A stretch of DNA of 37,603 nt, taken from contig PS015453.1 of NCBI GenBank assembly GCA_048213135.1, positions 1 to 37,603 on the forward strand, in the 5' to 3' direction. Shown piece by piece: positions 158 through 36,250 of the stretch (within the stretch, counting starts at the first letter, position 1; each line of letters opens with the position of its first letter). The notes beneath the pieces are model-generated. The model was given only the letters and a program-made list of their open reading frames with translations, did not search any database and had not been told where the DNA came from. Made by a program: the position numbers and the translations under genes. The DNA comes from Reclinomonas americana ATCC 50394. Its lineage: Eukaryota.

Positions 158-2563
158 CTATTCTTCCGCCTCGGCACCCTCACCGCTTTCCATCGGCACC
201 ACGCCCTCACCCTCTCCACCTTCATCGTCATCTGCCACTTCCGCAACAGCAGCACTTGACTCACCCGCCGCCGCAGCACCGCCGTCGTCCTCGGCGTCCG
301 ACGCCACCGTATCGCGCTTACTCGACGGCAACGGCGGCAGTGGCGTGGCGATCTCGGGGAAGAGAAGGGCCAGGTTGCTGCGTACGGTACCGCGCTCCAC
401 CTTGGACACCATCAGATTCACAGAGCGGCGTGAGAGGTACACGGCCACCGCAAAGTGCTTGCTGTGAGGTCGCACAACGTGAGCAACGCAGAAACGCAGA
501 AGGAAGAGTGCCAGAGTGGAGAGAGACGCAACGCAGCACCCGGCACCGCCATCGCCGGCAGATTGCGCGCCTCCTGCAATGCGACGACGCCACCTCCACG
601 TTCGCCAGCGCGGAACATGGTGCACGCCTCGGGTGAGAATTCATCCTCGAATACTGTCGACCACGACAGCAGACGGTTGAAATCCTCCAAGTTGACATAG
701 TAGACGCGCTTCGTCAGGTACGGGAAGGCTACGTTACGTACAGGTGAGCGCAGAAGCACATTGTGGGCAAAATGCGAATCGACCAACGCACCAAATCCCA
801 CAGACTCGTGGCAGATGCGATACGGGCACGAAATGTACTCCGTGTCGCGCCTCTCAAACAAGCGGAGACCGGCATTCACAATCTACGAGACGCGTCAGCA
901 AGGAACACGTGAGGAGACAGCAGCCTGATGTAACCACACCTGCCATCTCTTCTGCACAAGGTTCTGTTGAATGAGTTCGTGCACTGACTTGCTGACGTAC
1001 ACAAAGCGCGTGCTCCGCGAGTCATCGTCACAGCGCGTGTAAAACTGATTGGCCGGCAGATCCATGCCAAATGCCGCGCTGTTACCACAAGCGAGTGAGT
1101 TAGGAACAAAAAGGAAGCCCTCACAGTCAACTGTGCAATGTGCCGCAACAGTGCATCCTGGACGGCAGCGGTCGGCGCCTCGCGGAACTGACTGAAATTG
1201 GTTCCACGTCCATTCCAGCTGCGCACCTTGGCCTTGGCCTTGCCTGCGACACAACCATCATCAGCACTCACGTAGTGGAACAGAAAGATGGCGTGATCTT
1301 GGTCTCACCTGGTGGAGGGGCCGGCGGCACATCCTCTTCCTCTCCGTCCACCGGCATGGCGCCCGATGTACCCTCGTTCGGCAACTCGGTGGCGGCCACT
1401 TCGTCCGACACGGCAGTGTCAGCAGCGGCGGCCGCGGCAGCCGAAGACGACGACGGTAACCTCCGCAGCACAGCAATGAAGAAACCGCCCGTGTTCTGCT
1501 TGTGCGGAAGCACACGCATGCTGGAGGACAAACACGTCGGTGAGCGCCCGATCCCTCGCCTAATGGCCATAAAACTGTGTCTCACCATCGCTCCAGATGC
1601 ATTTCAGCGGCCTCCTCGGCAGTGGGCGGGAACATCGAGTGCAGCAATCGCCCATTAGGCGGGCGCTCACCCGTCTGCGCCTCCACGGACTCCCAGAAGC
1701 GACCCCACGCATCTGCGACCTTCCACGACGACAAACCCGGCTCACGAATCAATTCGGGGTACCGAGCTGAGCAGTCCACCAACTCCATCGTGCCCTTGTT
1801 CTGGCGCAGCAGCTCGGCGACCACGGCCTCGTCTTCGATTGGATTGAGGGAGCAGGTCGAGTACACCACAATGCCGTTCTCCTCAATCAGCTGGATGGCT
1901 CGCTGGGCCACACGCACTTGCATGCTGGGAGGCGGGAGAAGGGATTCGAATGAGGTGCGAGGGTCAAGAGAGGTGGGGGGAGGAGAGAGGAGACACAACT
2001 TGTGCAACCCAATCGCGCCGACCACACGCCACTTGACCCAGGCGTCGGGCTGCTTGCGGAAGGTGCCATCGCCCGAGCACATGACGTCGCACAGAATGCG
2101 GTCAAACCGCACCCGCCCGCGCCCCGGCAGCGTCAGACCCGGGAACGCTGTGGCGTCGTGATTGGTCAAAATCATGTGCGGGTACAACTCACGCAGGCGC
2201 ATGACTTGATGAATCAGCAGATACGCGCGCTTCACGTCAATGTCGTTGGCAATCACAAAGCCACCTTTGCGGGGTGTGAGTACCACGTCCGGTGGGCACA
2301 TGGGGGAGGAGAGGGGAGGGGGAGACGCAACTAATGTCCTCCTCGCGAGTGCGATTCGCAGCCAGGTACTCCAGCAACTGTGCCGTCTTGGAGCCTGGCG
2401 AGGCGCACATGTCGAGCACCTGACACGCGACATTAGATGCGAGGGGAGAGGGAGAAGGGAAACAGAGAGAGAGAGAGAAGGGGGAGGGAGAAGTGGGAAA
2501 GAGAGGGGGAAGGGAAAGGGAGAGAGAGAGGAGGGAGGGAGGGAGAAGGGAGAGGAGGGAGAC

Positions 2564-2604
<41 letters not shown>

Positions 2605-3929
2605 TATGTGTGTGTGTGTGAGAGAGAGAAACAGGTGCACGCAACTCGATGATGGCTCTCCACATCCATCAGCATCGGCGGCACCATCGACACCTCCTCC
2701 TGACGACTGACATTGCCCTGTGGCAAGAGAAACAACACAATCAATCCTCCGAGTCCGCAGCATGACGACGACTCCACAGTGGCGCGCACACACCTGTGCA
2801 GTTTGCGCTCGCAGGAACTCCAGGAACTCCTTCATGCGTGGATCCTTGCGCAGTCCCGTGCCCCAAACGCCCAAGCGCCATGCCATTTGGTCGGGGTACC
2901 TGACGAGGGGGAGAAGAAGGAAGAGAGAAAGGGAGTGAGCAAGGAGAGAGGGAGGAGAAGGGGATCGAGTCATCAAGTGGCGCGGGAGATGAGAGAGGGG
3001 AGAGAGCAGGGAGAGAGAGAGAGAGAGAGCGAAAGGAGAAAGAGGGCAGAATGGCTTCAAGCATGGATTTCGATCGAGACACCAAGTGGGTGAAGAGAGA
3101 GCAAGGGGAGCAGGGAGAATACGAGAGGAAGGAGCAAGGAGGGAGAAGGAGAGGAGACAAGGGGTCTCTGTGAATGGATGCATGCACCTCGATCACGACA
3201 CCAAGTAACCCGGAAGATGAGAGGGGGGAGAGGGAGGGAGAGAGAGAGAGAGAAGGAGAGAGGCAGAGAGGCTCAATCCTGCTTGAAATGTCAATGTATG
3301 CATGTTCCCCGATCAGGACACTCAGTCGCAGGAGTGCAGACATGGAGGGATCTGCTTCTCCCTCTCTCTCCCTCGCAATCATTCATGCATGCACACCACC
3401 CAATGCAAAAAAATGTGACTGACTGATCTCTCCCTCTTCCCCTCTCTCTCTCACACACCACTTGATAGGCTCCAAGAGAATCGCATCACCCGTCTCACTC
3501 TGCAACGAGCGGAACTGCGGCACAAAGTGGTCGCGCAGGCGATCGCGAATGGCCTCCGCAAAGGGACACGCCCCATTGATGCGAAACGTGGTCGGCAGAG
3601 GCTCCCGCATGCACTCCACAAACGCCTCCCACTCACTCTCCGCGATAATCCCTTGCGCCTGCACACGCGCACACGCACACACGTGAGCGAGATGGCACGA
3701 CATGTCACTCTTTGTTTGCTTGCACCTTGTAAAAGGTGGCATGTGCGTCGTTTTGCACAGTGGAGCGCTGCAACTGCGCGCGGTCGTCGCGCCAGTCGCC
3801 ATCGCCGCCGCCTGCGTGTGAGCGTGGAGGAGAGCTGCCCTCGGAACGAGTCCGCTTTCGCTCACTGCCACCGTCTTCGCCTGCATTGGCGCGCTTCTGA
3901 CCGCGACCGCGACCCTTGTTTCGCCCCAT
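158..3929 (-). CDS. NSUN2: tRNA (cytosine-C5)-methyltransferase NSUN2/Trm4, 13 exons
   Basis: Spliced frames give MGRNKGRG.., LPTTFRING, GNVSRQEEVSMVPP, VLDMCASPGSKTAQL, FDRILCDVMCSGDGT, VYSTCSLNPIEDEAVV, CMRVLPHKQNTGGFFIAVL. Exons: 3929-3726, 3658-3459, 2899-2794, 2717-2646, 2419-2332, 2264-2000, 1924-1586, 1520-1309, 1243-1150, 1078-940, 882-792, 728-533, 461-158. All introns GT-AG and frame-consistent; TAG at 160-158. Confidence 0.96.
2950..3430. repeat. Degenerate ~115-bp tandem repeat (4-5 copies) inside NSUN2 intron 2
   Basis: Core GATCRNGACACCAAGT-like motif at 2963, 3072, 3191, 3311 (weak copy at 3425), usually preceded by GCATG and separated by GA-rich tracts. Confidence 0.65.
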
Positions 3930-4670: not shown

Positions 4671-6393
4671 GTCCTGTGAGTCGCATGCTGCGCGACCTCA
4701 CACAGCGACTTGCGCAGCATCGGCGACGATTGGACACTGGGCAGTGGAGCAGCAGCAGTGATGAGCACGATGATGATGATGAAGATGATGAGAGTGAGGT
4801 GGAGGCTGTGGAGGCCGGGTTGATGGGAAGAGTTGAGTGCAAATGAGGGAAAGGGAGGGGTAAGGGAGAGAAGTAGGTGGGGAAGGCGAGAGAGAGAGAG
4901 AGAGAAGGGAACAGCTGTCTCGATCACTCACTCACTCACTCACTTACTCACTCACTCACTCACTTACTCACTCACTCACTCACTCTCCCACTCACTCACT
5001 CTCCCACTCACTCACTCTCCCACTCTCCCACTCTCCCTCTCTCTCACTCTCACTCACTCACTCACTCGCTCTCTCGCCTTTCTCACAACTCATCTTCTCC
5101 TTTCCTTCTCCTTCCCTTCCCTGCTTCTTCCCTTCTACTTCCCTTCATCCTTCCTCACTTGTCCCCCCCTTCTCCCCCTCCCCCAGGTCCCCCGCGACGC
5201 CCCTCTGGACTCCGCCGGCGCCCTCCGCCGCAGCGTCCACGAGGAGTTGTCACGCGCACACGAACCCCAACCTCCGCCTCCTCTCGACGAGGTCCGCACC
5301 GTCGATCGTCGCACAAAGCGCGAGTTGGTGGTGCGCCCGCCAACTGCACCTCCGTCGCGCATGACCTTCCGTGGGGTTTCATTCGAGGTCGGAGGCGACA
5401 GTGGCAGTGCGAGTGCACGGGGCAGAGTTGTGGAGAATGCAGAGTTCCGAGCGGATTTGGGGCGCCGACTGACGCGCAAGAAGAAGAAGCGACGAGTGAG
5501 CCAGGTGGAGGAGCGGGAGGAGTTGCTGCGGAAACGCGAGTCGGCGAAGCGGTATGCGCGCGAGGCACGGGAGTCGACCACGCAGAGTTGAGAGCAGAGA
5601 GCGTGCATACCTTTTTTTCTTCTGTGTTTGTGTGTCGCTGACTCGATGAGCCGCAGCTGTTCGACGATCGACGAGTCGCACGCGACGCGGTCGTGTGAAG
5701 ACAAAGGCAGCTGCTGCGGCGCCACCGCCGCCACCGCCCTCGGATGTGCTGGCGTATCGACGCTACAAGGAGGGCCAGCTGCGGCGACAGCGGGCAGAGG
5801 AGGCCGAGGAGGAGGGGAGGCGTGTAGCGGAGGCGCATCGGGAGTGGGCGCTCGACATTGAGAGGCGCATGCAGCGGATACGTGAGCAGGCCGGCATTGT
5901 GCCGCCATCGCAGAATAGCGCGCGCACTCGTTCGACATCGCCGCCTCCACCGGCACCATTGTATGTGGCGCGCAGTCCGTCGCCACCGCCTGCGCGCGGC
6001 GAGTCGGTGGAGCGCGACGCCAGTGGAATCGAGTGGGTCATGGCCGACGATCGACCGCCATCACCATCACCACCGCCTCTGGTGTCGACGCCGTTGCAAC
6101 CATCGGCAGTCAGAGAGGAGGAGGAGCGTCGACGGGTGGAAGAGGAGCGTGGACGTGTGCGACATGTGACACCGACGGTTGGGCGACGCACGCGAAGCGC
6201 CAGCGGTGGCACGCCTCGTCATCAGAGCACGCAAACCGTGGATGCCTTCAACGAGTACCCGCCACCGTCGCCCCTGGTGCGCAATCCGAGTCTCGTGCGC
6301 AGCAGCAAGCGTGTGGGGTGGATATCGCCGCATAAACCCTTTAGGGCTGCCGCTCCCATTGTGCCCACCGAGCGGGGAGTGCGGCTCTTGTAA
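4658..6393 (+). CDS. Hypothetical low-complexity/coiled-coil protein, 3 exons
   Basis: Exons 4658-4831, 5187-5586, 5657-6393 join in frame via two A|GTTGAG..CAG introns. Arg/Glu/Pro/Ser-rich with a basic RKKKKRR cluster; TAA at 6391-6393. No family recognised. Confidence 0.75.
4925..5065 (+). repeat. (CACT)n microsatellite in intron
   Basis: Direct run of CACT/CTCA units inside intron 4832-5186. Confidence 0.9.
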
Positions 6394-6446
6394 AAAAGAA
6401 TCAGAAAAAATATTGTTGTTACACATTGCGGTTGTCTCGTCTCTCT

Positions 6447-9400: not shown

Positions 9401-9500
9401 GAGAAAAGAGAACGATCAGGCGGTCACTTTCTCACGGTTTCTGCATGCATTTCTCTCTCTCTCTCTGTACTCTTTCCCTCTCATGTCTCTCTCTTCCCTC

Positions 9501-9557
<57 letters not shown>

Positions 9558-10382: not shown

Positions 10383-10439
<57 letters not shown>

Positions 10440-10495: not shown

Positions 10496-13400
10496 ATGGA
10501 CGAATTGACGGATGCCTTGGTGCACACGCTCACCAACAAAAACAGCGAGCCTCGGGGCAGGAGTCTGCTTACGAATGCTTTCCAGTATGCGGATGCTCCC
10601 GCCAGACAGGAGCGATGGAATCAGTCGGTGCTCCTTCGTGTCTTCAAGCCTGAGGGGCTGTTGTGGTTGGCGAGCCAGATGCAGATAGAACTGTTGCCTG
10701 ACGATCTCCGCTCGCGAGACACACTCGCTCAGTGCTTGGTGGCATGGCAAGAAGCAAAGGTTTGTGACGCCTCGTTTCCTCGTTTCAGCATCCTCGACTA
10801 ACCAGCAGGCGCAGCTCCGCAATGTCGGTGGGAGCGGAAGTAGCAATGCGGCGAGTAGTATCACCACGTGAGCAGCCGTGTGCCACTCCGATTTGTTGTA
10901 TGAGCGCCATTTCTTATATATTTCATCACATGGACAGCACCAACAAACGCGCAGCGGATGGCGCTGACGATGAGGAAGAGGAGCCACCTGCAGCGGCCGA
11001 GCGGGTTGCTTCGCCAGCGCGAAAGCGAGCACGCTCAGGTGCAGCAGCTGAAGCTATGAGCGTCGGTGAGCTTCACGGACCTGCTGTGATCCTTGTTCGT
11101 CGTCTCACGTTCTCTTTCCGCAGACGGTGATGCATCAGACGACTCGCACGTTCTGCCCATGTCACAAGGTGAGCATTCTTTCTCTCGTCCTTGCGTATGT
11201 GTTTCAGCGCGTGATCCTCATGTCCACATTGAAGGAAGTACGTCGGGCGGGGGCCGCTCGTGCTTCCAGTCTCGTTGCGCTGGAACACACAAGTGCTGCG
11301 TGCGGATTGAACCTCTTGTGGTAACCGTGATGTGTCTTCCAGGGGAAGCTGTGGAGAGGGCGCTGACGAGACTGTCGAATCGACACCCTTCTGTGATGCG
11401 CGGGCCGGATCAGCGCACGTTGAACTCGTCAAACCAACCAGTGCGTCGTGCATGTGAGCGACCGCTGTTCCTTCGCAAGGTGGTCACGTAGTGTCATCTG
11501 TTGCAGCTCGCGGAGTACACCCAGATGCAACTTCAGCACCGCAGTCTACCGCCGGACCTGCCGACAAAAGTATGCGAGCATATGGATGCTTTGCGCAGAG
11601 GCAGGACAGCAAAGGAACTCCATCGCTTCATTGCTGTTGGCGGCGGACCAGGAACTGGAAAGTCCCGCCTGTTGGATGAGCTTCCACAGCTGCTGTTGAA
11701 CCTGGTGCAACACCAAATAGCCAGCGGTGCCAGACCCGGACGATTCAGTAATCTGCTGCCCACCCTCGAAAATCTGCTGAGTCATCGAAGAATTCATGTT
11801 GCGTGCGCATGCCTCTTGCTGTATTCACTGCGAAGTCATTGGTGACGCGTGTTCGCTCGCAGCTGTCGGTGACGTTCTGCAGCGGAGATGGCCTGCTTCC
11901 TGAGGAGAAGAACAAGGGAATACCACTCATCGGCTTTCGTGTACTCTGCTCGTGGTATTCGACACCGTCCACGTCCTTTCCGGATTGGATGAGGATGCTG
12001 CGGTCGTCAGCGGAGGGCAGCATTGAGAGCGACGTGAGCCTCTCTTTGGCATTGTCCACGATCGCGCATGACCTAGAGCGACGGTACCCCGGTATTTTTT
12101 GCCGACTTGCACCCCCCTGCACGAGTGAGCCGAGGCTGACGGCATGTGCACAGGCATTCTTGATGAGCAGCTCTTGGTATACGTGGCAGTGGATGAATGC
12201 CTCAAAGTGGTGGAGGCCAAGGGTAATCGCGTACTTGTTGCCAGGCATGAGTCTAGTCGTCCCACGAGTTACTGTTGTGCTGCAGGCAACCTGAAAGAGA
12301 TGGTGGGATCCATTGGTGACGGGCTCTGCTCGCCCCCAGCCGACGCTCCCAATGTAATCCTGCTGGCGGCCTGCTCGGCGCTGGTGCTCGGCCAACTTCA
12401 AGAGGTGTTTCATGCATCTGGTCATCCCATGGCGGCGGTGCCGCTTCCGCTGCTGGACGATCGCCATGTCGTGCGCATACTTGAAGGTGTGTTGGCTTCG
12501 GAGCAGCACCGTTTCTTGCACACATGGCGAGCGATGCCGCCACTCCGTCTGGTTATGGCTCAGCTGGCTGGGTTGCCGCGTGCTGTGGAGTACTTCGTAC
12601 GCACAGTACTTGATTGGCCGGGTGCGTAATCACTTCACGCTGTCGCTCTCTCAGCTGTCGTTCTGAGCTTCCTTGCGGGTGCAGGTGCTGGGTTGTTTCA
12701 CGAATCCGATATGCCAGAGTTCCGCGGTGCGCTGGTCAATTTGCTGAAGGAGCGGTACAAGGAACTGGACCTAGACGTCATCCGAGTATTGGAGCTGTCC
12801 ACACAGCCCGTGTCCAGTCTCGACGCCACCATCCTGTTCGAGGATGACAAGCGCATTCCCCTCAGCGAAGCTGAGTATAATGGGCGCCTGTATCACCGTG
12901 AGCTGAAGCAGGTACGCGCCGTCGTCTATTTTCTTGCTTCCTGGGCACAGTGTGACGTGACTCCATACAGTCCGACGGCTCGAGGCAGTTGTACCCTGTG
13001 TTCCCCTTTGTGCTGGCGTCCACTCAAGACGAAATGACGAGGAAGACTTTGGTGTACATGCGCGATGACGGCGACCAGATGTTCGAGCGCACCTGCACTG
13101 CTGCTCTCGCCATCAAGTTTTCATACCTGGAGCCGCCCAATCAACGCACCGTGCTGGTCAGCGATTTGCTTCGCGGAGCCAATTTTGGCGACCCAGCGAC
13201 TTTTCGGCGCCCGTCAGGAATGCCTCCCTCGACCCCTATTTCGATGGCTGAGCGGCTTTCAAGCCCATGGGTTCGTTGTAGTTGCTGTCTGCAGTAGTTC
13301 CGTGCATTCGCTCACACAATTGTGTTCCACAGGACGCATCGCGCCTCTCGCACCTGTCTGTTTTTCTGAACCGGCCACACTCTCCGGCCGCGGATGCTTT

Positions 13401-14268: not shown

Positions 14269-14624
14269 GCATGTTTGTCGTGAGCAATGCACACTGCGTT
14301 TTTTGTCGACGGTCGACATCGATATCGATCGTGATTGTGCGGGCATTCACGGGCTGCACTCCTTCGCCTTGCATCTGCAGTGGAGTACACTATCGCCTGT
14401 AGCTGCAGCTGCAGGTCGCTCATATGCAGTCGACAGTCGACATCGACATCGACGTCGACATCGACACAAGCAACTTTTTTGTCGGAGTGAGAGAGAACAC
14501 ACACCCTCGCTGTGTCTCGTTGCTCTCACTGCTCTCCTCTCGCTACTCTCTCTTCCACTCTTCCTCCCACTCTTCCCCTCCCTCCCCTCTCCCTTCTCTC
14601 TCTCTCTCTCTTTGCATTTCCCTC

Positions 14625-15077
14625 ATGGGTGACCACTTCACCAGCTCATTCACCGTCGCCGACAAGAGCGCCGACGAGGTCTTCGAGGCCATCAAGAACG
14701 TGCGCATGTGGTGGACGGGAGCCATTGAAGGCAGCGCAGACAACATTGGCGACGAGTTCACCTACCGCTACGGCGACATGCACTACTCCAAGCAGCGCGT
14801 CGCCGAGCTCATCCCCGCACGCAAGATCGTCTGGCACGTGGTCGACGCCGAGCTCACCTCCCCGCAAAACCGCACCGAGTGGAAGGGCACCGAGATTGTC
14901 TTCGATATCTCTGCAGGCGACGACGGGAAGACCGAGGTGCGCTTTACGCACATTGGTCTGGTGCCGCAGTTCGAGTGCTACAAGAACTGCGCCTACGCGT
15001 GGTGTTTTTACGTCGACACCAGCCTGCCGCATTTCATCGCCACTGGCGAAGGTCCGATGTCGCCTCCATGGGCGTGA
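14625..15077 (+). CDS. SRPBCC/AHSA1-like (START-fold) ligand-binding protein, intronless, bacterial type
   Basis: 150-aa ORF: MGDHFTSSFTV..EVFEAIKNVRMWW..GDEFTYRY..HYSKQRVAELIP..KIVW..TEWKGTEIVFDI..GKTEVRFTHIGLVPQFECY..AW. This is the pattern of bacterial AHSA1/CalC-like SRPBCC proteins; third codon positions are strongly G/C. Confidence 0.9.
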   Translation: MGDHFTSSFTVADKSADEVFEAIKNVRMWWTGAIEGSADNIGDEFTYRYGDMHYSKQRVAELIPARKIVWHVVDAELTSPQNRTEWKGTEIVFDISAGDDGKTEVRFTHIGLVPQFECYKNCAYAWCFYVDTSLPHFIATGEGPMSPPWA

Positions 15078-15223: not shown

Positions 15224-15824
15224 ATGGGAAAGAAGGCCAAGTCACCGCGCTCAGCCACCAGCCCGACGAACGGTGCTTCGTCTGCATCCGCCGCTGCTGA
15301 TGCACCCACTGCTGCTGCTGCTGCAGCACCACCAGCAGCAGCTCTCTCACCGGAGGAGAAGCGCAAGCAGGCGGAGAAGGAGGAGGCCGAGCGCAAGGAG
15401 CGCGAGGAAGCAGAGGCTCGCGAGTGGCGCGCCACACACAGCAAGCCAAGAAGAGTACTGCGTCGCGTATGGGAAAAGACGACAAAGTTACGACGCCGCG
15501 AAGACATTTCGCACTTCCACGCACGCGCACTCACACACGCGCGCGTGCCTGTGTGTGTGTGTGTATGCTCACAGCACTGGGTCGTGGCTGTGGAACACCG
15601 CCAAGTCATGGGGATGGCAGATGACGACGGCCACGATTCTGCTGTCGCTTCCGGTGCTGCGTCTGATCCAGACCGAGATGCAGCTGGAGCGTGAGTCAGA
15701 GGAGCAGCTGGCGTTCCAGCAGCGCATGATCGCCTCCAGGCAAGCACAACAGGCGGCTGCTGCTGTGTCAGCGCCGGTGTCTGCGCCTGTGACTGTCCCC
15801 GGCTTGCCGTTGTTGCCCAATTAG
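15224..15824 (+). CDS. TOM22: Mitochondrial import receptor subunit TOM22-like, 2 exons
   Basis: Exons 15224-15486 and 15575-15824. TGSWLWNTAKSWGWQMTTATILLSLPVLRLIQTEMQLE matches the Tom22 signature W-x2-TT-x3-L-x2-P followed by a Gln/Glu-rich intermembrane-space helix. Confidence 0.75.
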
Positions 15825-23640: not shown

Positions 23641-26600
23641 ATGACCGAGCGTTCCCTCTCCGCCACTCCGTCTGGCCTGCGAGCTCCGGCGCCGCAGTCG
23701 AGCATGGAGAGCGGTATGCTGTCGGCGTTGGCGCTGTCGATGCCGTTGGCGGCGACGGGAACCATGAGATTTCGGTCGGGAGGAGCGGGGTCGCCGGCGT
23801 TGCGCTTGAATCCGGATCCGGAGGGTCCGTTCAGCGTGTTGCGGAGAGTGCCGGGGCCAAAGTTGCCGCCACTCGAGGAGGACTTGGATGTGTTGCAGAC
23901 GGTCGAGTTGCGTGCCCTCTCTATCTCTCCACAACACTCACTCTCTGATTGACTTACGGCGAGTGGCGCGCAGACTGACGCACACCAAGGACGCCAAGGT
24001 CCTTCATCACCACGGCGTGGGCAGCGCCGGACCGAAGAACCTCCTCATTCATCCGGTGTTCTCGCGACTGCAGGAGCCAGGTGAGGGCGAGAAACCAAAG
24101 ATGAACTTTAGCTTTCACAGTCTGCGCATCACGGATCGCTTGAGGTGAGCATGTTTATGCGTGGGTGTCTCTCTCTCTTTCACGTGCTGTCTCTCCTCAC
24201 CAATGTGCGCAGACGCACCTTCAACAAGGGCCTCACAGCACCTCTCGGAAAGCCGTATCAGGCGCTCGGTACGCCACGGCAGCCAGACACACTGGCACCC
24301 ACCATCTGGCAGCCACAAAAGCGGAAGCGAAGAAAGGTACATCAACCACCACACGAAGCGCATGAACATCAAGACCCTCACCGTCTCCTCTCTTTCCTCC
24401 GTGCAGCAGCGAGTGGGCATGTCGGCGGCTCGTGAGACGGAGGAGCCTCCGCCAAACGCTCCTGCTACTGCTGCTGCCGTCGACAGACCGGGCGCGTCCA
24501 CTGATGCTGAACAGCACCAGCAGCAGCAGGACCAGCACGGCGGTCAGGGCTCCACGTCTCCCAACCATGGCGGTCACCATGGACACCACCAAGCGCGGGC
24601 AGCGTCACCGTCCGAGTCGTACCACGTGTACGGAAACCGATCACGGTCACCATTGTTGCACGATCGCACCACCTTGTACGGCAAGGCGCCGCGCAAGACG
24701 CAGCGCGACGAGACCGAGGAGTCGCGGTTCCCACAGCAGTACCTGCAGGAGGCCTTTGATCGACTGCAGCGAAGCAAGAGTGGCCTCTCTCTCGTCGGCT
24801 TCGTGCACGAAGATGTCGACATGGATCGCTTGTTGCCTCGTGCGATCCTGTTTGAGAAGAGTTATGCATGCTAAACAGCACGACCACCTTCCTGTCCACC
24901 ACCATGCTCACTTGCGTGTGCAGATGCTGCTCGACGGCTGCACAAGCTGGTGTCGGCCGCGCGTCGTGCGTCCATCCGGTCCACAGACAGCGACATGTCA
25001 GAGGAGGCCGGGTTCGTGGTTTCGCACGCACGTCTTCACCACCGTCTTCTCACTGCGAGCGTTGCTCTCAGCGAGGGTGTGCGAAATCCACTGCGACGAC
25101 TTGCTCACGCCGCGAACAAGGTGCGCAAGCTGGCGAAAAAGGCCAAGACCAAGAAGGTGCCGAATCAGCAGGCGTTTGAGAACATCATGGACCCGACCGC
25201 GTACGAAGTGATTCGTCGGCGACAACGACCCGAGGTCGACGAAAACAGTGGACTGCTCACCGGAACAATGACCACGACGACGACCATCACCACCACCACC
25301 ACCACGACGACGACGACACCGGCTGCCACCAGTCGCACCAGTCGCGATGAAACGAGGTCGGCAAAGCCAGACTCGCGCGAAGCCAGGCCACTGTCGCAGC
25401 AGAAGCAGCCGCATGCGCAAGAGCTGCAGCAGAATTCGTTGCAAGCACCACCGCAGACTCCATCACTACGACGACGCTCCATTACTGAGCTGACGGAGGC
25501 GGAGAAGAATGCCAAGAACTCGGGTCAGGCCGCAGCACCTGCAGCAGCGCGACCACCTCCGGCCATCGCGACTGATGGGATGGAGGCCAGTGGACCCAGT
25601 GCACCGCCTGTCGATGGCCTCCACTCGCCCTCTGCGCTGCTGCGTGCGGCTGCCGCGATCAAGGAGGAACACATTCCGGCGCAGTGGCGGCAGCGCATCT
25701 GTGCCTTCCTGGACTCGATCCGGCCCACCGACACGCACTACTCCATGTCGGACGTCGACTTGGAGAACAATCCGGGCTACGCACCACTGCACGAGCCACT
25801 GTTTCGCAAGTGGGAAGGTGCATGATTGTTTGTGACCAACTTCAGTACTTGTTCGCCTCCTCACTCTTCTCGGTTGCAGATGTGCCTCGCAAGAGCCAGA
25901 ATCCGGACCAAGTCAATCTGCTGGCGCCCTCGGCTGTGTTGGACGAGGATCAGGATTCGATGAAGCACAAGGATCAGCGACAGTCCTCCAAGCACCACCG
26001 CCAACATCCAAACTACCTGCATCCCACTCACCCACCGGATTCGCCGGCTGGAGTTGCGCTTGCATAACTGGGCGTGGTGGTTGTTGTACGAGTGGCTGAC
26101 GCGCATGTGCATGTAGGGCACACTGATGAATGTGCTGTCGGATGTGCGCGAGGAGATGCGACGCAGCTTGCAGCAGGAGCTCGCTCTGCGCAAGGAGTCG
26201 CGCGACCACGTGATGGCCAGCAAGGAGCACTTGGCGAAGGTGGCCGGGCGTGCCAACAGTCTCGGTCGCCTGTGGTCCACCCAGCGCAACCGCAACCCGG
26301 TTCTGGCGCCCGGGCGCAGCTTCTGGTTGCGTCTTGTGAAGCTGGCAATAGGCGGAAAAACAAACAAGATTTCCTGACCCGTGTGCAGGGTGGACTTGCG
26401 CGACGAGCTGTTGGATCGGGTCGAGGCGCTGGCTCGCTCAGTGTACCTGTGGCGCTGCTTGCTCTTCTTCCTGGCCTACAACGGCATCCCGGGCTTTGAG
26501 CGCACGCTGGAGATTGTCGAGCACGCCCGACAGTTGCTGATCGGCGGACTCGGGGCCACCGACAAACTCTTCTTTGCTTTGCTGGACTTTGTTGGTTTGT

Positions 26601-27352: not shown

Positions 27353-27545
27353 AGTGCATACACTGTTTCACTGTGTGTGTTGTGCGGTATTCGGTGGTGG
27401 TTGGCCATGTCTCACTCTCCTGTACTCTCTCCCACGCACGCACACACGCACAAATCACACTCTCCCTCCTTCAGTCTCCTTCTCTCCCTCTCTCCTCATT
27501 CTTCTCGCTGACTCACTCACACACTCACCCTCACACACAGAAAAA

Positions 27546-30500
27546 ATGGCAGCTCGCGATGCAGGCGAGGCGCGCCTGGCTCGCATTCAGATCCAGAACC
27601 TGCAGCATGCCACTCTGCGTCACGTCGGCAACCGAGTTACACACACACATACACACACTCTCTCTCTCTCTCTCTCTCACGCACACTCCGATATTCACAC
27701 ACACATTGCACAGGAGTTTGACAAGGCCGCTGTCAAGACACTGCAGGCGCTGGAGATTGCGCGCAAGTTTGACCGTGCCAACTACCTGTGGTGTCTCAAG
27801 GTGCGCACTCTTGCCACTGACACACACACATCGATGCCAGTGACTCATTCATTCGTGAGTGCAGAGTGCGGCCAGTGTGCATCTGCAAGCCGAGCGATAC
27901 GCGCGAGCGGCCGAGTTGTTGCACGAGGCGCTTCCGTTGGAGGAGGAGAGTGGACGCGGATCGCTGGATCATGCCATGTTGTTGAGGGAGCAGGCCATGA
28001 CGCTGGCGATGCTGGGAGATTTCATTGCTGCCGAGTCGTCGTTGGTGTCGCTGGTCGGTGTGGTGCGACGCCTCGAGGGAGCGTTGCGTACTTCTTTCTG
28101 TGTTCTCTGCCCGCTCTTCTTCTCTCTCATCGTGCTTTTTTGCAGTGGCGTGGCACTGGTGCAGGAGGTGTTGATTGCGCAGGGCGACGTTCTGGAGTTG
28201 CAGGGATACTATGGGCTTGCGGCGAGGGCGTTTGGCATGGCGGTGGAGGTCGGCGTGAGGCCGCCGGCTTCTGTTGATTACGATGCCGTGAGTGCGCTGT
28301 GCGACGCCAAGTCCGTGGCGGCCACGGGGGAGAATGTGGCCTTGTGGGGTGCGTAAAATGTGCAAGAGTTACGTCACCAAGAGTGGTGTCTCACGATCTC
28401 TGATGATGGCAGGAGTCGATTTCGAGGACGTGCTCTTCCAGGGTGACGATTTCATCGGCAACGGACCCGTGACAGTGCCGTACAGTGCGCCACTGACGTC
28501 GGCACTCAGCGCCCCGCGTGCCACGTCGTCGGGTGACCCAGAAGAGTCGTTTGAGGGATCATCGTCTAGCTTGCCACACCGTGAACTGCGTGCCGCGGCG
28601 CGGTGGGCGCGAGCACTTGCCAGGCGCGTTTGATAGTGGGAAGGGGGAGGAGTAGGGGGGAAGGGAGAGGAGTAGGGGAAAGGAGGAGTGCTTGGGTTCG
28701 CTTCATTAGTGCTATTGAGCTTTCCACGCACAGAGTTGTTTTCCCCCTCCGCTCTTTTCTCTCTCATACACATGTTTCTCATTCCCTTTCTCTCGTTCCT
28801 CTCTTTCTTTCTCTATTTCTTTTCTGTTTTCTCTCTCTCTCTCTCCGGTCTTTTTCTCTCACACTCTTCCTGCCTATCTTCCGTGTCTCCCGTCTCTCCA
28901 ATCTCTCTTCCACATTTCACCCTCGCGCTTCTCCCTCTCTCTCCCCGGCCTCTCTCTCCACCCTCCCTCCCCTGCTCTCTCACACACATTCTTCCTGTCT
29001 CGATTCCTCTGTTTCTCATTTCTCACTCTCTGTCTTGTCTTTTCACTTCTCTCTCTTTTCTCTCGTTCTCTTCCCCTTCCTCATCTCTCGCCTCTCCGAG
29101 CTCTCTTTCTATCTCTTTCTCATTTCTTACTCCCTTCCCAGCTGCTCCTCTCTCTCCCGTGCCTCTCGTCTCTCTCTCTCTCACTCTCTCTCTTTCTCCC
29201 TTCCTCTTTCTCTCTTCTTTTTTCTTCTTCTTCCCTCTCTCTTCCCTCCTCTTTCCCTTCCTCTCTCCTCTCTCTCTCTCTCTTCTCTTCTTCTCTCTCT
29301 CCTCTCTCCCCTCTCTACCCCTCTGCCCCTCCTTCCCTTCTTTCTCTTCTATCTCTCATCCCTCTTCTCTCTCTCTTCTTTCAACAACGCAGGTGCTCGA
29401 TGGCCGACGACGCCGGCCTTGTCAGCTTCTCCTCGTCTCGCTCGCTCCGTCGAACATGCGCGGAGCGCGCCGTCCGTCTCTCAGAGTACGTCATCATTCG
29501 ACGGCGTACATTCGACGGGCCGTGCGTGTATCCGTCGAACCTGAGTGCGGCCGAGTTCACCACGTTCTTCTCGGAGAATGCCATGTTGCGTCTTTAGCCG
29601 AAAGAGCTATTAGTGTGTGCTTGTCGATTGCCAACAATTATGTGGCACAGGGAGTTGTCGTTTGCGCTGGAGACACTCGGACTGGTGTACCTCGAGTTTG
29701 GTGCACCGGAGGAGGCGTTGAACATGTTCCAGGAGAGCGCACAGCCGATTGAGCGACTGCAGATTTCACATCGGCGTCTCGTGGATGTTGCGTCTCTGTC
29801 ACCGTGTGTATGTGTGTGCGTGTGTGTGCATGTGTGTGTGTGTGTGTGCGTGCGTGTGCGTGTGTGTATGCGTGTGTGCGTGACGAATACGGCTTGTGTC
29901 GCGTTTGCAGTCACCTTCTCTCTCTCGCTGTGTGCATGTATGTGTGTACTTGGGATGTTGTGCACGAGAATGACCTGCGTGTGTCCCCAGTTGCGCCACT
30001 ACAGCGCCATGTGCCAAACATCGTCGATCAAGGCCATTCAAGAGCACAATGAGTTGCGTGCATGAACACCACGGGGGAAGGGGAAAAGGAATTCTCACTC
30101 ACTGTGTCGTATGTATATCCAGGGCCCTTTCGTCCCGGCAGGGACGCGGAGAGAGCACGCACCCTGTGGAGCTTGCCGACTCGCTGCGATGGACTGGCGA
30201 AGTGTATCTGACCATTAATGAGTGGTCGAAAGGTTTGTCAGCTTGCAGCAATAGTTGTTCTATCCCCGCTCACCGTCTCGGCCCTGCAGCACAATCGATC
30301 CTCGTCGAGTCCCTGCGAGTGGCGCGCTCTGCCGGCACAATTGCCAGCCTGCAGCAGCTGCGCAGTGTTCGCAGGTGATTGATTCTGTCGTCGACGTGTC
30401 ACGCTCATCTCTCGTTCCCTGACACGCTTGTGTAGTATTGTTCGCCTGCACTACTTGCTCGGTGACATGGAGGGTGCACTGGAGGCGGCTCATGCTGTGC

Positions 30501-33500
30501 TCCGCCTGCCTCACCGCCTCTATCCCGACACGCTGGATGACGAGGGTGCCGCCAACGGGGATGGCGAGGAACCTGCGTCGCGAGACGATTTCGTCAGGGG
30601 AAGCTCGGTGTTGCATGCAGCAGGTTCGTATCACGTAGGGCGAACCACTAAGTTGATTTAAGTTTGTGTCTCATTTGTCTGCGTGAAACAGTGGTGTCCT
30701 TCAGCGGCGGTTTGCGATTCGCACGACAGCCCGACAGCACCACCTTGGACGCCGTCTACGAAGCACCCGACGTTGTCACATCGCTGGTGCAACGCGAGTG
30801 GGTGAGTGTGTTGGTGGACAGAGTGATGTCGGTTGCCCGCAACTAAACACTGTCGTCGTGCAGATTGGGTGTGTCGACTCTGATCAAGGCTGTGCCCTGG
30901 TTGTCGACATTGCGTGCATGATTGGCGAGTTGTACGTTGACGGTGGTGCTGCGGAGGAGGCGCACGTGCTGCTCTCCAACGTGATTGAACTGTGCGAGGA
31001 GCTTTTCGGTACCGTGAACGACTACCTGGCTCGTGCGCTGGTTGCGCTTGGCGATTTGCTCTCACGGGTCCACCAGCGAGAGGAAGGCGTGTTCTTGTAT
31101 CAGAATCCGTTGTGTAGCTTCGCATCATTCCTGACACGCTGCACAGCTCTGGTGATGATGGACCGTGCGAGGAGTGTGCTCAACGAGGTCGACCCCTTCC
31201 ACTCGATGAATGTGCAGGCGATTCTCGAAAACACCTCCGAGTTGGTGGATGCCTCGCCACGGGGTTCGTGCTCTCTCTCTCCTGCTCTCTCTCTCCTGCT
31301 CTCTCTCTCCTGCTCTCTCTCTCCTGCTCTCATCGTCATCACTGTGTCTCACTGTTGTCACACAGACTCAATGGCCAGCAAGCCGCGGAAACGCAATCTG
31401 CTGAACTCACAGGAGCTCGTGGCTCCCGGACAGGGCCGCGCTGATCATTACGCCAGTTTCGCGTCGATTCTTGTTGCTCCTACTCCATGTCACAGTGGAT
31501 GCTCACTCTCGCCATGCACAGTGGAGACGGCGTTGCGTGAGGCGCGTGTGTGGCTCAAGATTGCCGATGCCGACATGTGCATCCGCTTGTGCTACATTCT
31601 TCTGCGGGCGAACCACCCACAGTGGCAATTCGACATGGAGGTCCTCACGTTGCTCGGCGACGCGCTGTTGCCGTCAAACATGGCCGAGGCACTGGTTTGT
31701 GTTTGTTTGTTCCCGCGTACTCCTGCTTCTTACCTCCTTGCTCCGTGTGCAGTCATGTTATCGCGAGGCAATCACCTGCGTCGGCCGCAGTGATCTGCAC
31801 CGGCACGGCAAGCACGCTCTCAAGGCACAACTGCTGGCCAAGATGGCCTCTGTCTCGGTGGAGCGTGGCAACTACGAGCAAGGTCGGACTCCTCCTGCCT
31901 GTGAGTTTTTGCGCACTTTCTCTCATCCAAAAAGCAGGTCTGATTGAGTACCTGGTGTGCCTGCGATACGTGCAACGCAACGTGTGTGGCGACGTGGCCG
32001 GTGCGCATCCGCTCATCATGCGACTCTGTCTCGACATGTTGCGCGTCATGTCGGTGCCGTACATTGATCGCTTGCTCTCCATGCTGGAGGTACGATCGAC
32101 TGAGAGAGAAGGTGGAAGTGGGAGAGAGACACTCACATGTAGATGCAGGCTGGACTCGACCGGAACCGCGTGGCGGACGACACGGGAGCGTCGGTAATCA
32201 CACTCGGCGTGGAAAGCGCCAGGTCGGTGGTCAGTGACTTGCCTTCGGCGCGGTCCACTGGTGCGTCGCTTGTCGTTGTCAGTTGTATCCGCAGGCGCTT
32301 ATCATATGTGCTTTTTTTGTTTTGTAGCGGCGGCGTCGTCGGCCTCCTCGAGTGTGGCGAGCATGGCGGAGGAGGACTCCACGCTGACGGTGCAGGATTG
32401 CCCGTCAGTCCTCGACCTTATGCGCACCGCAACAGCGGCTTACGATCGACTCGTGGCCGTTCTCACCCCTTTTGCTCCGTTCTCGCGGGCCATGCGTGTG
32501 CTGCACGACGGCGCCATTATGATTGACCAGTTCTACTCCATTCTTCATCGCCTTTACCTCCGTCTGACCAACGAAGCGCACGATGACGAGGGAAAGCCCG
32601 TCAAGCATCTCTTGCCGCAGGAGGTGCGCAAGCGAAAAGGTGAGCTTGAAGGAGATGGGAAGGGAAGGAGAAGGGGGAAAAGGAGAAGGGGGAAAGGAGA
32701 AGGAGAGGGGGATAAGAAGAAGAGGGAAAGGAGAAGGAGGAAAAAGTAGGGTGGAAGGAGAAGGGGAAAGGGGAAAGAAGTGGAGGGGGAAATGAGTGTG
32801 AAGAGGGAAAAAGTGCATCTTTCACAAGGAGCTTGTGAGCGAGTTCACGACAGACTGAGACATTCCACGTGTAAGCTAAAGTGCAAAGCAAGAGTGCGGA
32901 GAACTTGCTCTGCCTGCATATGTTACTCAATTCCGCGCTCCGCTTTGCGTGCGACAGCCACCGACGTCATGTTGATTATGGGCGACCTGAGCGTCAAGTA
33001 CAAGGGCCTGCTGTTGGATGCCGTGTACGACCGTGAAATCACGCAAGCGAAGCGCAAGCTGCGGTCGCAGTTGCCCGCTGTCGATGTCATGATGTGGTAC
33101 CTGCTCAGCGTCGAGCAGTCGCGCCATGTGGATCTTGGGTATGCGTCATTATTCCTCTCCTTTTGTGACACATTTGAAGCATGCTCACTGTTGGGTACAC
33201 AGTCCCGGCCCCGGCAAATCCGGTCCCGACCACGGCACTGAGGTTCGCGAACGACAGCAGAGATTACGCACGCTGGCGCAGCGTACACCACTTGGCGAGC
33301 CGACTCTCGGCAGCCTGCTGGAGTCCATGTCGGTTCCGCTGCCGAGAAAGTTTCGTGTGCTTGTTTTCTTGTGTGTTGTGTGACAATTGCTGACATTTTG
33401 CTGGCGCAGACGAGTGGCGAGTGCGCTGCCGCCAAACACCACCTTTGTCGACTTTATCTGGATGCCCATCCAGTCCACAACTCCGGCGTCGGTGACCACG

Positions 33501-36250
33501 GCACCGTCGGCACACGCTGTTGCGTCGCGGAGGGTTCCCTTCTTTTGCTTCGATCACTGCTCACACTGATTGCCCATGCTGCAGAGTGCCGGTGGATCGC
33601 CGCGATTCGGTCACTACTTTGCATTCGTTCACACTGGAGAACAACGACTGGGGGTGAGTGGGCGTTGAGGGAACAGCGCGAGAGAAAGAATCTCACCGCC
33701 ATTGCAGGAGCCTGTGGTCGAAGTCGTCGACATTGGCGTGTCGTCGCGCATTGACTCGCTGGTGTCGATTTTCATGACTGCCGTGTGCGTCAGTCGCTCA
33801 CAACAGAGCGGCGGTACTCCGAGCTCGGCTGAGGTTCGTTCTCCGTCGTTTATCGTAATAAGCAGTAGCGCGGTGACTGACTTGCCGCTCTTGCAGTCGA
33901 GCATCTCGTCGCCGGGACTGCCGCCCGACATTCTTGGCATTGGATTGCAGCTGCGCTCGCTGCTGTTCGATCCGGTGCTGCCGTTCCTGCCAAGCACGTG
34001 CACACGGGTGAGTTTCCCAGGCCATGCATATATCGAGTGGAGGGAGTGATTCTGACTTGTTCTGTGTTCCGAGCAGTTGCTGATCAGTCCCGACGGCACA
34101 CTGTGGGAACTCAATTTTGACATTCTGCCGATTCCCGCCGAGTACAGCTTCAAGTGTGTGAGCTCGCAGCGCACAGGTGCGTGATTTTTGGAGTGGTGTG
34201 CCTTCTGCACATGTGGGTTGCTGATCTCCATCCCTGCAGACGAAGTGATTCAGCGACTGAATATTCTCGCTGCACCGGCACGGTCGCGCTCGGCGCTGCA
34301 GTCACTGCGGTCGCCGTCGTCCGCACGTGCCGGATCGCCATCGTCGCCGATGCTCAACGGACGCGGTTCGTCACCGACTCCGTCGCGTCTCGGTTTCGAG
34401 TCGCCAGTGCTGCGCAGCCCGTCGGGTGTGCGCAGCAACACGCCGGCCACCATGCTGACATCGAGCACTCGTTGCGTTCCGTGCATTGCGTCCTCTTTTG
34501 AACATCTCTCACTCACGCGCACGCATGCACACACACACGCAGCCTTGCCACTGCCGCTCTCCAGCGAAACAGATCCGACGCAGCGGTACCTGGTCGACGT
34601 GGCCGTCATTGCATACGTGCACAGTGCGCGCGATCTCATTCGTCGTGCGGCCAACGACAACACGGCCAAAGTGGGCCACGTACCGACGCAGCCCGTCATG
34701 ATTGTGCGTACAAACACATCGGCCTGTCTTGCATCCGATGTCTCTGAAATCGCGTCTACGCAGTTGCACCAAGGTGGTGTCATCATGGAGGGTTCCGAGT
34801 CGTGGTCGACGGGCTCGCCCACGAGCGCCTCCGGCTCCGTTTCGTCACCGACTGCCGGCCGGCCGATTTCTATCGACACGCGCAGCTCTCGGGCCGACAC
34901 GATGGCCAGTCGCGAGCATCGCCGCTCCCCGTCACCGCACTATCCCGTCGCGAGTCCCACTGCCGCGCCGCCAAAAACCAAGTACGTTTTCACTCCCCAC
35001 TCCCCATCTCTTTCTCTCCCGCACACCGTGCTGACTGCACCCAAAAAGGCCGACACCATTCGAGGCGCTGGCCAGCCTGTGTCGCGACGTGTACGAGTCA
35101 TCGTATCGGTCGATTCAGTTTGAGCAGCTGGACACGCGTACGATTGATGCTGGTGGCGCACGCAAGGACGAGATCATGGCCCTCGTGCGACCCCGCATGT
35201 TGCAACTGACCTCGATTCTGGCGTGCGTATGCTGTGAACCAATCTCACGCCCTCTCTCCCACCTGCGCCACTCACTCTCCTGCATCCCCGCAGCTACGAC
35301 TTGCCGCTCGGCTACGACGGCGCCCTGTGCGACACGGATCCGTCGGCCAGATTACTGCGCGCGAGAATGCAGAGTCCGCCGACCACTGTGACGCTGCGCC
35401 CCATGGGCATTGGTCATCGAGTCGAAGAGATGCGCACGGTCAGTCAGATCAGTTCTCCACCCAGTGCCTCGGCGAGTGCTTTGCGCGACTTGCAGTCGTC
35501 GCCCTCGCAACGTCGTCTCGGTGCCACAGCCTCTGTCGCCCAGCGAAAGAAGGTGTGCGCTGCGAGGAGGCCTTTATTTTTTGGTACTCTTCTCTCCTCC
35601 TCACGCCGAAACACGCAGCTGTGGAGCGCACTGGAGACGTGGGCTCAGGGCTCCATGAGCATGCACTGCCCGAGTGGCATTCCGGTGGTGGGCCCCGATT
35701 TCGATGCCGGCATTTACACGGCGGTGGCCATGCGCAAGAGCGGCCTCACTGTGGCGCCACCGTACAATCCGCCCGAGCGCTGTCTGCCCGAGTACCTGTC
35801 GGCGCTGCTGCCGACCGATTTGGCGCAGATGCACCTGCTCGGCACCACGCTGGTGGTACTGGCCGCACTCGGTCAGACGCGGTTGGAGATCAAGGGGTCG
35901 TCGGCGCGTCGGCGGCTGTCGCAGGCGGTGGTGTCGGCCGGCGCGAGGTGTCTGGTGCAGAATCAGTGGTCGTCGGCGTCGGTGCAGATGCGACAGGCAA
36001 TCGGTGAGCGAAGGGGGAATTAGGGGAAGGGAATGGGGGGAAGAGAGAGGGGAAAGGGGAAGTTCACTGCGTCTCGAACTAACTCGCTATCTGGGCAGAC
36101 GATGTGCATCGAATCACCTTTGGCACGGTGGCCGACAAGCAGCTGTCTCTTCCGGAGGCCATTCGCATCGGCAAGCTGCGACTCAAGAAGGAATTCCCGC
36201 ATCCGTTCTTCTGGGGCTTCCTGCAGTGCTTTGGCGCAGGATCCGACTGA
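27546..36250 (+). CDS. Large TPR-repeat protein with C-terminal CHAT (caspase/HetF-like) domain lacking catalytic residues, ~34 exons
   Basis: TPR-like helices (AAELLHEALPL, LETLGLVYLEFGAPEEALNMF, LARALVALGDLL..EEAL). CHAT-family motifs in order: YKGLLLDA, VASALPPNTTFVDF, LRSLLFDPV, LLISPDGTLWELNFDILP, RYLVD..IAYVHSARDL, RPRMLQLTS, MRKSGL, LLGTTLVVLAALGQT, AVVSAGARCLVQNQW, HPFFWGFLQCFG. TGA at 36248-36250. Confidence 0.85.
28735..29381 (+). repeat. ~650-bp polypyrimidine (CT-rich) low-complexity tract in intron
   Basis: Almost exclusively C/T on the sense strand, up to the acceptor AG at 29391-29392. Confidence 0.9.

Follow-up and report, generated by a model that had tools for sequence, protein, structure and literature searches.

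Two classes of 5' splice site, one displaced by one base, among the introns of a 37.6-kb window from Reclinomonas americana

Human 5' splice sites that are read in a shifted register by U1 small nuclear RNA (snRNA) are rare and atypical. Roca and Krainer reportedly described such sites in human genes in 2009, and Roca and colleagues are said to have described bulged-nucleotide registers of U1 pairing in 2012. Here we describe a 37.6-kb window of Reclinomonas americana ATCC 50394 (the whole stretch analyzed, contig PS015453.1, positions 1 to 37,603) in which 27 of 83 modelled introns begin with GTT and carry their conserved G at +6 instead of +5. Shifted and bulged U1 registers are both established for human sites in the part of PMC4856993 available to us, and the donors of the window resemble each of them. 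As in human shifted-register sites, a U follows the GU, the consensus lies one base further into the intron, the -1 base takes the place of -2 and cleavage stays at GU; as in the +2/+3 bulge registers, there is one extra U after GU and the same downstream pairs are possible. The differences are equally clear. Human shifted-register sites pair with standard U1 through A-rich cores, whereas here the core is GCG, no such pairing is predicted, and a third of the introns is concerned. Bulge registers keep the pair between -1G and C9, whereas here G stands at -1 in only 1 of 27 donors and the extra base is invariably U.

To our knowledge, human variant U1 snRNAs are minor players, and we know of no intron class dedicated to them. 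Through them a single cell reportedly contains more than one kind of U1, in part with changed 5' ends (PMC3561869), as would be the case under the reading preferred below. In Entamoeba (donor GUUUGU, U1 5' end ACAAAC) and Mastigamoeba (donor GUGCGC), unusual donors are matched by a U1 whose 5' end has changed, and Physarum is reported to have modified U1 variants alongside standard ones, all in the accessible part of bioRxiv 10.1101/2022.06.08.495308. As far as that source goes, the Entamoeba and Mastigamoeba donors are, like those described here, lineage-specific, rich in information and unmatched by standard U1, so that a changed U1 is the natural reader. However, each of those systems has one transformed donor in the normal register that replaced the old one, while here a single gene can contain donors of both classes, each with its own register. 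Entamoeba-type systems are also defined by a changed U1 gene, while ours is known from the donors alone. We found no report of a GUUGCG donor class in the literature on jakobid introns, U1 registers and protist variant U1, supplements not being covered. The nuclear genome of another jakobid, Andalucia godoyi, is intron-poor (PMC7050145, available part).

The window has a G+C content of 54-63% and about 14 densely packed genes with numerous GT-AG introns of approximately 65 nucleotides (nt), and it is our entire data set. We compiled a curated set of 83 introns, consisting of 81 from the third pass of a purpose-written gene finder that used a donor mixture obtained in a blind pass, with 5 removed and 7 set by homology or motif. 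Forty-three donors have G at +5 (class 1: GTGCGT 9, GTGAGT 6, GTTCGT 4, GTGAGC 4, GTTTGT 4, plus others), 27 begin with GTT and have G at +6 without G at +5 (class 2: GTTGCG 20, GTTGAG 2, GTTTCG 2, and GTTACG, GTTATG and GTTGTG 1 each), and 13 fit neither pattern. The class-1 donor can be written G|GTNNG(T) and the class-2 donor, with a few one-base variants, W|GTTGCG(T); both occur in ordinary short GT-AG introns. In class 2 the conserved G-T is placed one position further into the intron, and the last exon base excludes G. We consider it very probable, on the sequence evidence below, that this second donor class is real.

An initial annotation of the window, made from its letters, had listed 28 GTT donors. 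All 28 hexamers are present, 26 of them at the coordinate and on the strand first assigned, and the two GTTGAG donors at 4832 and 5587 are here corrected to the plus strand. Its tally was reproduced (27 donors with GTT and G at +6, plus GTTACA, with A 15, T 7, C 5 and G 1 at -1), and its figure of roughly 30% of introns agrees with 27 of 83. Its statement that 28 introns begin with GTT was too low: four GTTCGT and four GTTTGT donors, which have G at +5 and at -1, and GTTCCA at 13780 begin this way too. Because further GTT donors carry G at +5, class 2 is defined by GTT together with G at +6, and not by GTT alone. G at +5 and G at +6 exclude one another almost completely (both occur in 1 of 83 donors), and the depletion of G at -1 is pronounced: 37 of 43 class-1 donors follow G, as against 1 of 27 in class 2 (p = 2e-12). 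The contrast persists when only donors with T at +3 are compared (8 of 8 against 1 of 27, p = 4e-7). Within class 1, AA is absent from +3+4 (0 of 43, hence no GTAAG, a word that occurs 17 times in the window), and GA (12) and GC (11) dominate.

As a word, GTTGCG is not enriched. The two strands together have 4729 GT sites, 42 of them GTTGCG, compared with 34.0 +/- 5.9 copies in shuffled sequence, and 11 of 100 shuffles reach 42. The case for class 2 therefore depends wholly on these copies being intron starts, and 20 of the 42 are modelled donors. Our gene finder, a dynamic-programming (DP) procedure, scored codon usage and allowed an intron from any GT to any AG, so that its donor information was GT only; one version learned an acceptor matrix on the fly, and a later one added a length prior. 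With the acceptor matrix it called 65 introns, 13 of which start with GTTGCG. With the length prior it called 89, of which 81 are at most 130 nt long, and 15 of these 81 start with GTTGCG (binomial p = 7.9e-16); two of the 15 calls were judged spurious, one at 6526 on the plus strand, antisense to the zinc-transporter gene, and a 35-nt call at 37292 on the plus strand. GTTGCG was the most donor-specific hexamer in these calls, with 36% of its copies used, compared with 13% for GTGCGT and 3% for GTGAGT.

The same blind calls allowed the two classes to be recovered without labels. We fitted an unsupervised mixture to 76 short-intron donors, which remained after 5 calls antisense to stronger genes had been dropped, and the Bayesian information criterion favoured two components (2072) over one (2114) or three (2137). 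The first component has G at -1, G at +5 and T at +6; the second has A or C at -1, followed by T+3, G+4, C+5, G+6 and T+7. In the initial annotation each class-2 donor was seen as a normal donor of this genome with one T added. The inserted base is indeed always T, as none of 124 copies of GTAGCG, GTCGCG and GTGGCG was used as a donor by the gene finder, but the proportions of the cores differ: GC occupies +4+5 in 20 of 27 class-2 donors (74%) and +3+4 in 11 of 43 class-1 donors (26%). Class 2 is also uniform, with most of the donors other than GTTGCG one change away from it.

As a homology check, we built profiles from fetched homologues of three genes in the window and scored, for each junction, all GT-AG and GC-AG alternatives lying within 36 nt that were frame-compatible and free of stops. 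The three genes are as follows.

158-3929, minus strand: NSUN2-like tRNA methyltransferase gene
6447-9302, minus strand: zinc transporter 5-like gene
16265-19127, plus strand: HRD1/synoviolin-like ligase gene

The class-2 introns of the window and the one GTTACA intron are given below, with the outcome of the profile scan, of the reading-frame check or of the gene finder (DP) for each.

462..532, minus strand: class-2 intron, NSUN2-like gene, donor GTTGCGTCTC; called by DP; length not a multiple of 3
1079..1149, minus strand: class-2 intron, NSUN2-like gene, donor GTTGCGGC; best listed alternative, 681.9 bits
1925..1999, minus strand: class-2 intron, NSUN2-like gene, donor GTTGTG; 1st of 18, 5.6 bits over GTGTCT 3 nt downstream
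2265..2331, minus strand: class-2 intron, NSUN2-like gene, donor GTTGCGTCTC; 1st of 8; called by DP
2420..2645, minus strand: class-2 intron of 226 nt, NSUN2-like gene, donor GTTGCGTG; 1st of 9, by 6.0 bits
7955..8024, minus strand: class-2 intron, zinc transporter 5-like gene, donor GTTGCGTG; called by DP
4832..5186, plus strand: class-2 intron of 355 nt, donor GTTGAG; called by DP; acceptor uncertain
5587..5656, plus strand: class-2 intron, donor GTTGAG; called by DP; stop if retained
11798..11862, plus strand: class-2 intron, donor GTTGCGTG; found in the pass with the donor mixture; stop and frameshift if retained
15487..15574, plus strand: class-2 intron, donor GTTACG; called by DP; length not a multiple of 3
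16712..17423, plus strand: class-2 intron of 712 nt, HRD1-like gene, donor GTTGCGTCTC; 1st of 13, by 6.9 bits
17523..17591, plus strand: class-2 intron, HRD1-like gene, donor GTTGCGTCTC; 1st of 28, by 5.5 bits; called by DP
18318..18386, plus strand: probable class-2 intron of 69 nt, RING of the HRD1-like gene, donor GTTGCGTT; in frame, stop-free
19302..19365, plus strand: class-2 intron, SKA1-domain gene, donor GTTGCGCC; called by DP; length not a multiple of 3
20011..20085, plus strand: class-2 intron, SKA1-domain gene, donor GTTGCGTCTC; called by DP; stop if retained
23907..23973, plus strand: class-2 intron, donor GTTGCGTG; called with the donor mixture only
24861..24923, plus strand: class-2 intron, donor GTTATG; called by DP even without a signal model; stop 11 nt inside
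26053..26116, plus strand: class-2 intron, donor GTTGCGCT; called in the first DP pass; retention gives a stop and a frameshift; a single alternative
26326..26388, plus strand: class-2 intron, donor GTTGCGTCTT, the sole class-2 donor with G at -1; called in the first DP pass; retention gives a stop
27636..27713, plus strand: intron with GTTACA donor (no G at +6) and CA repeats; called by DP; in frame, stop-free, 9 alternatives; weakest of the 28
28083..28145, plus strand: class-2 intron, donor GTTGCGTA; called by DP; in frame, stop-free; signals only
29585..29650, plus strand: class-2 intron, donor GTTGCGTCTT; called in the first DP pass; stop 10 nt inside
29787..29990, plus strand: class-2 donor GTTGCGTCTC with a span of 204 nt; donor called by DP; acceptor uncertain, several alternative pairs possible
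30053..30122, plus strand: class-2 intron, donor GTTGCGTG; called by DP; retention gives a stop and a frameshift
31456..31521, plus strand: class-2 intron, donor GTTTCG; called by DP; in frame, stop-free
33350..33409, plus strand: class-2 intron, donor GTTTCG; called by DP; retention gives a stop
33519..33584, plus strand: class-2 intron, donor GTTGCGTC; called by DP; retention gives a stop
34471..34542, plus strand: class-2 intron, CHAT-domain gene, donor GTTGCGTT; called by DP; in frame, stop-free

The GTT donor ranked first at 7 of the 9 class-2 junctions scanned, one of the seven being a tie: 2645, 2331, 1999 and 1149 in the NSUN2-like gene, 16712 and 17523 in the HRD1-like gene, and, nominally, 8024. 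In the identical test, donors outside class 2 (with G at +5, or neither pattern) ranked first at 10 of 14 junctions. The initial annotation had held that several class-2 junctions are fixed by conserved protein frames, and in the NSUN2-like gene this is so. Specifically, the join HHR|VLDMCA at 2645 and the join EEDIS|GFVIAND at 2331 are gapless against homologues in tblastn alignments, and that at 1999 is gapless against Seculamonas and Naegleria proteins. At 1149, the GC donor 3 nt downstream scores 680.8 bits and the 1131 donor chosen by the gene finder 676.4 bits. The case is weaker at three other sites. The 532 junction lies in a variable region where GC-donor alternatives score up to 3.8 bits higher; 8024 is nominally first of 5, with two GC alternatives within 0.2 bits and the next GT donor 6 bits lower. 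At 18318, where RING spacing had been cited as fixing the junction, the evidence is divided. Excision of exactly 23 codons leaves 3 residues between the aligned stretches, matching human synoviolin (8kes_A), and with the intron retained the Pfam zf-RING_2 match is limited to profile positions 15-44, the second half of the finger; however, the HRD1 homologue profile, whose consensus has a long RING loop insert here, favours retention.

We also considered a GC-AG reading, in which the exon would end in GTT and the intron begin with GCG. A GC donor 3 nt downstream was the runner-up in five scans (2645, 2331, 1149, 16712 and 17523), and in all five it scored lower, by 1.1-6.9 bits; at 8024 the two readings are tied. 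In the reading-frame check, in which some phases are heuristic estimates, read-through is impossible for 22 of the 28 introns, 6 are in frame and stop-free, and for 14 no frame-compatible alternative donor with G at +5 exists within 36 nt. The introns at 4832 and 29787, which are long and have uncertain acceptors, and the in-frame, stop-free GTTACA intron at 27636 are not individually secured.

These tests bear on whether class 2 could be an artefact of gene modelling, the true junctions lying at other GT or GC sites and GTTGCG having been chosen by chance or bias. The junctions are indeed models, the word is not over-represented, six of the introns could be read through, homology leaves 18318, 532 and 8024 undecided, and at 23907 the blind gene finder took GTGCCC 5 nt downstream and a different acceptor. 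Even so, we regard an artefact as very improbable: GTTGCG emerged from a procedure blind to donors (p = 8e-16), unrelated homologues ranked GTT first at most scanned junctions, the -1 base differs from class 1 even among donors with T at +3, and, as described next, that base is under selection where it is synonymous.

The composition of the last exon base in class 2 (A 14, C 5, G 1, T 7) is indistinguishable from that of position -2 in class 1 (A 18, C 6, G 10, T 9; p = 0.19) but departs strongly from that of position -1 in class 1 (p = 8e-10). On the intron side, T at +7 in 20 of 27 class-2 donors parallels T at +6 in 29 of 43 class-1 donors. Where a class-2 intron has phase 0, its -1 base falls on the third, synonymous position of a codon; A or T stands there in 9 of 10 cases against an expected 25% (p = 3e-5), third positions of the NSUN2- and HRD1-like genes being 25% A+T and 42% G; this excess indicates that the base is under selection. 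Taken together, the statistics at -1, the T at +7 and the extra base that is always T favour a displacement by one base over a generic bulge, in which G should persist at -1. The statistics bear the signature of a shifted register as put forward in the initial annotation; the corresponding helix with the standard U1 5' end, however, is not predicted.

We computed optimal duplexes between the 11-base U1 5' end AUACUUACCUG, as printed in the part of PMC4856993 available to us, and each donor from -4 to +10, using a nearest-neighbour energy model. Class-1 donors paired as expected, with a mean of -7.3 kcal/mol and the G+1:C8 pair in 41 of 43. Class-2 donors averaged -1.3 kcal/mol, weaker than 600 random GT sites (-2.9 kcal/mol, p = 2.5e-4), and the shifted G+1:C9 pair was optimal in only 2 of 27. 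The donor at 4832 was recorded in our feature list as the sole class-2 donor with predicted shifted-register pairing to standard U1, one fewer than the duplex tally gives. Nor do class-2 donors offer the usual complementarity to standard U1 (G+5:C4 and -1G:C9), as they lack G at +5 by definition and have G at -1 once in 27, the same count that sets them apart from the +2/+3 bulge with its canonical -1G. Pairing below background combined with a tight motif makes standard U1 unlikely as the sole reader. Because a shifted helix with standard U1 is not predicted, the further proposal of the initial annotation, altered recognition or a variant snRNA, becomes more likely.

These results weigh on the possibility that one standard U1 small nuclear ribonucleoprotein (snRNP) reads both classes, class 2 through a shifted register or a bulged U at +2/+3, helped by U1C, Luc7, TIA-1/Nam8-like proteins and a check by U6. 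In its favour are the exon-side and +7 statistics, which agree with a shift of one base, the constant identity of the extra base as U, and the proof of such registers in human cells in the accessible part of PMC4856993. The 12 nt after the class-2 core have a pyrimidine fraction of 0.64 compared with 0.54, which is not significant (p = 0.13). But class-2 pairing is weaker than that of random GT sites, and the shifted helix is rarely optimal. Compensation for weak pairing predicts GA or AA enriched at +4+5, where GC is found in 20 of 27, and the bulge model predicts a -1G that is all but missing. We consider a single standard reader unlikely. A single U1 changed at positions 5-6 fails to set class 2 apart from background: among 16 variants, the best (GC) reached -6.3 kcal/mol for class 2 against -5.65 kcal/mol for background.

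Class 2 might instead be recognized without U1 pairing, by a sequence-specific protein or by direct U6/U5 selection reading UUGCGU. Class-2 donors have almost no complementarity to standard U1, and their motif is tight, as a protein or RNA binding site would be. Yet we saw no candidate factor, and the shifted exon-side preference and the G-U pair are predicted by base pairing but not required by a protein site. The U6 ACAGA box, by reasoning and not by computation, matches GCG no better than other class-1 cores. This explanation seems to us improbable.

In everything downstream of the donor, the two classes look alike. All 27 class-2 models are GT..AG, as the models require. A CAG acceptor ends 40 of 43 class-1 and 25 of 27 class-2 introns; a YTRAY motif of the CTGAC/CTGAT type occurs in 16 of 39 short class-1 and 10 of 23 short class-2 introns, with median distances to the acceptor of 16 nt in class 1 and 16.5 nt in class 2; the median intron is 65 nt long in class 1 and 67 nt in class 2; and intron phases are alike. 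The shared branch-like motif, acceptor and length suggest that both classes are probably removed by one catalytic spliceosome, and removal by the same U2-type machinery is the most likely reading of these sequence features.

Two co-existing donor classes, one degenerate and one with a tight, extended donor, in the same genes recall the division between U2- and U12-type introns, and a diverged minor-type (U12-like) or otherwise separate spliceosome could in principle remove class 2. However, no RTATCCT donor occurs in the window, and the two TCCTTRAY sites, one on each strand, lie outside the class-2 introns. Unlike U12-type introns, then, class 2 has neither U12 donor nor U12 branch motif, and the 3' halves of the two classes, in motif, distance, acceptor and length, are the same. 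We give a separate spliceosome very little credence. Less credible still is that class 2 consists of copies of a recently spread mobile intron family (an introner) that brought its own donor. The 10-mer GTTGCGTCTC is found at 7 donors and lengths are uniform, but intron interiors are no more alike within class 2 (local alignment score, mean 7.8 and maximum 18) than within class 1 (7.5 and 20) or between the classes (7.6 and 19). Pairing between intron ends, as in euglenid non-conventional introns, was examined as well, and the ends of an intron pair no better with each other than with swapped ends.

In the reading we prefer, recognition of the class-2 signal is displaced by one base from the usual register. 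The -1 base of the exon would act as -2 and U+3 as U+2, while G+6 and U+7 would take the roles of G+5 and U+6. Cleavage would remain at GU, so that one U must bulge when U6 takes over. Class 2 would be read by a U1 with a changed sequence or, with greater likelihood, by an additional U1-like snRNA; the 5' end of this reader would be about 5'-ACGCAAC-3', complementary to GUUGCGU, and a standard-type U1 would keep serving class 1. A hypothetical ACGCAAC end gives -10.0 kcal/mol for class 2, with G+1 paired in 27 of 27, and only -6.0 kcal/mol for class 1. For the mechanism as a whole, modelled as a shifted register, a non-standard U1-like reader and a shared spliceosome, we estimate a probability of roughly 45%. 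Its most specific form, in which two U1-type snRNPs work side by side, one per donor class, the second with a 5' end near ACGCAAC for W|GUUGCGU, is a tentative possibility. Rfam at gathering thresholds returned no RNA-family match in the window.

Several considerations weigh against this reading. All junctions are gene-model junctions, the three at 18318, 532 and 8024 not being settled by homology, and the curated set was refined with the donor mixture from the blind pass and is partly circular. The near-absence of G at -1 (1 of 27, when a pure shift predicts about 23%, or about 6) is not fully explained by any pairing model that we tried. The energy model ignores pseudouridines, U1C, Luc7 and other proteins. 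The variant-RNA step is drawn purely from cis signals and that model, and because the ACGCAAC end was fitted to the data its score is a prediction and not independent evidence. Finally, most lineages with odd donors retain a standard U1, which yeasts, Giardia, Thecamonas and Mamiellales are described as keeping (bioRxiv 10.1101/2022.06.08.495308, accessible part), and this speaks for a standard U1 here as well.

If two such U1-type snRNPs were at work, class 2 would be a third type of spliceosomal intron, set apart solely by how its 5' end is recognized and feeding the same U2/U6 catalytic core, with a cleavage site offset by one base from the U1 and U6 helices. A register-shifted donor would then be a main mode of splicing, used by about 1 in 3 introns and often beside ordinary introns within one gene, whereas non-canonical U1 registers are otherwise known as rare exceptions in human genes. 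Such a genome would offer a natural system for asking what fixes the cleavage site if the helices of U1 and U6 are displaced by one base, how far U1 and donors can co-evolve, and whether two U1 species can share out the introns of a genome. There is also a practical consequence, in that gene finders with a single donor matrix will mis-model about one third of the introns of Reclinomonas americana ATCC 50394.

Three donors that ranked first in the homology scans follow neither pattern: GTATTG (6687-6754, minus strand), GTGCAA (3659-3725, minus strand) and GTGATT (16573-16657, plus strand). All three retain G at -1. The NSUN2-like gene also has a 559-nt class-1 intron (2900-3458, minus strand, donor GTGTGTGA), far above the 65-nt norm, which is pinned by the gapless join IKW|YPDQMAW to homologues. 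A few long introns hold microsatellites or short tandem repeats, namely 2420-2645 on the minus strand and 4832-5186, 16712-17423, 29787-29990 and 31264-31365 on the plus strand, and their repeat content appears to account for their length. The repeats are GA/TC at 2446-2602, (TCAC)n at 4924-5075, degenerate 24-nt units at 16765-17211, GT-rich sequence at 29804-29882 and 4.5 copies of TGCTCTCTCTCTCC at 31269-31331.

For one NSUN2 exon, the top matches were a jakobid at 65% identity and Naegleria at 57-61%, and a metagenome scan with an NSUN2 exon found 18 loci, the best at 55% identity, too distant for a comparison of orthologous introns. A word-based search with an HRD1 exon gave no match; the nearest HRD1 relative found, P0155 (52% identity, 161 amino acids), lies on a 1352-nt contig. 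Its alignment (query 59-220 against 3-145) spans the HRD1 intron at 17952-18017 (plus strand), and compared with the read-through translation it lacks about 19 residues, a deficit that fits excision of a 22-codon intron.

The remaining genes include, according to Pfam, an SKA1-domain gene, a TPR gene and a CHAT-domain gene, and several low-complexity genes match no Pfam family. Among the intron-rich neighbours stands a 150-codon gene without introns (14625-15077, plus strand). It matches no Pfam family at E <= 0.01 and lies within a stop-free stretch whose G+C content at third codon positions, 0.79, is among the highest of the window. The intergenic spacer at 14290-14470 (plus strand) is packed with GTCGAC/ATCGAC units (TCGACAGTCGACATCGACA twice), and GTCGAC is among the most frequent GT hexamers in the window, with 64 counts on both strands.

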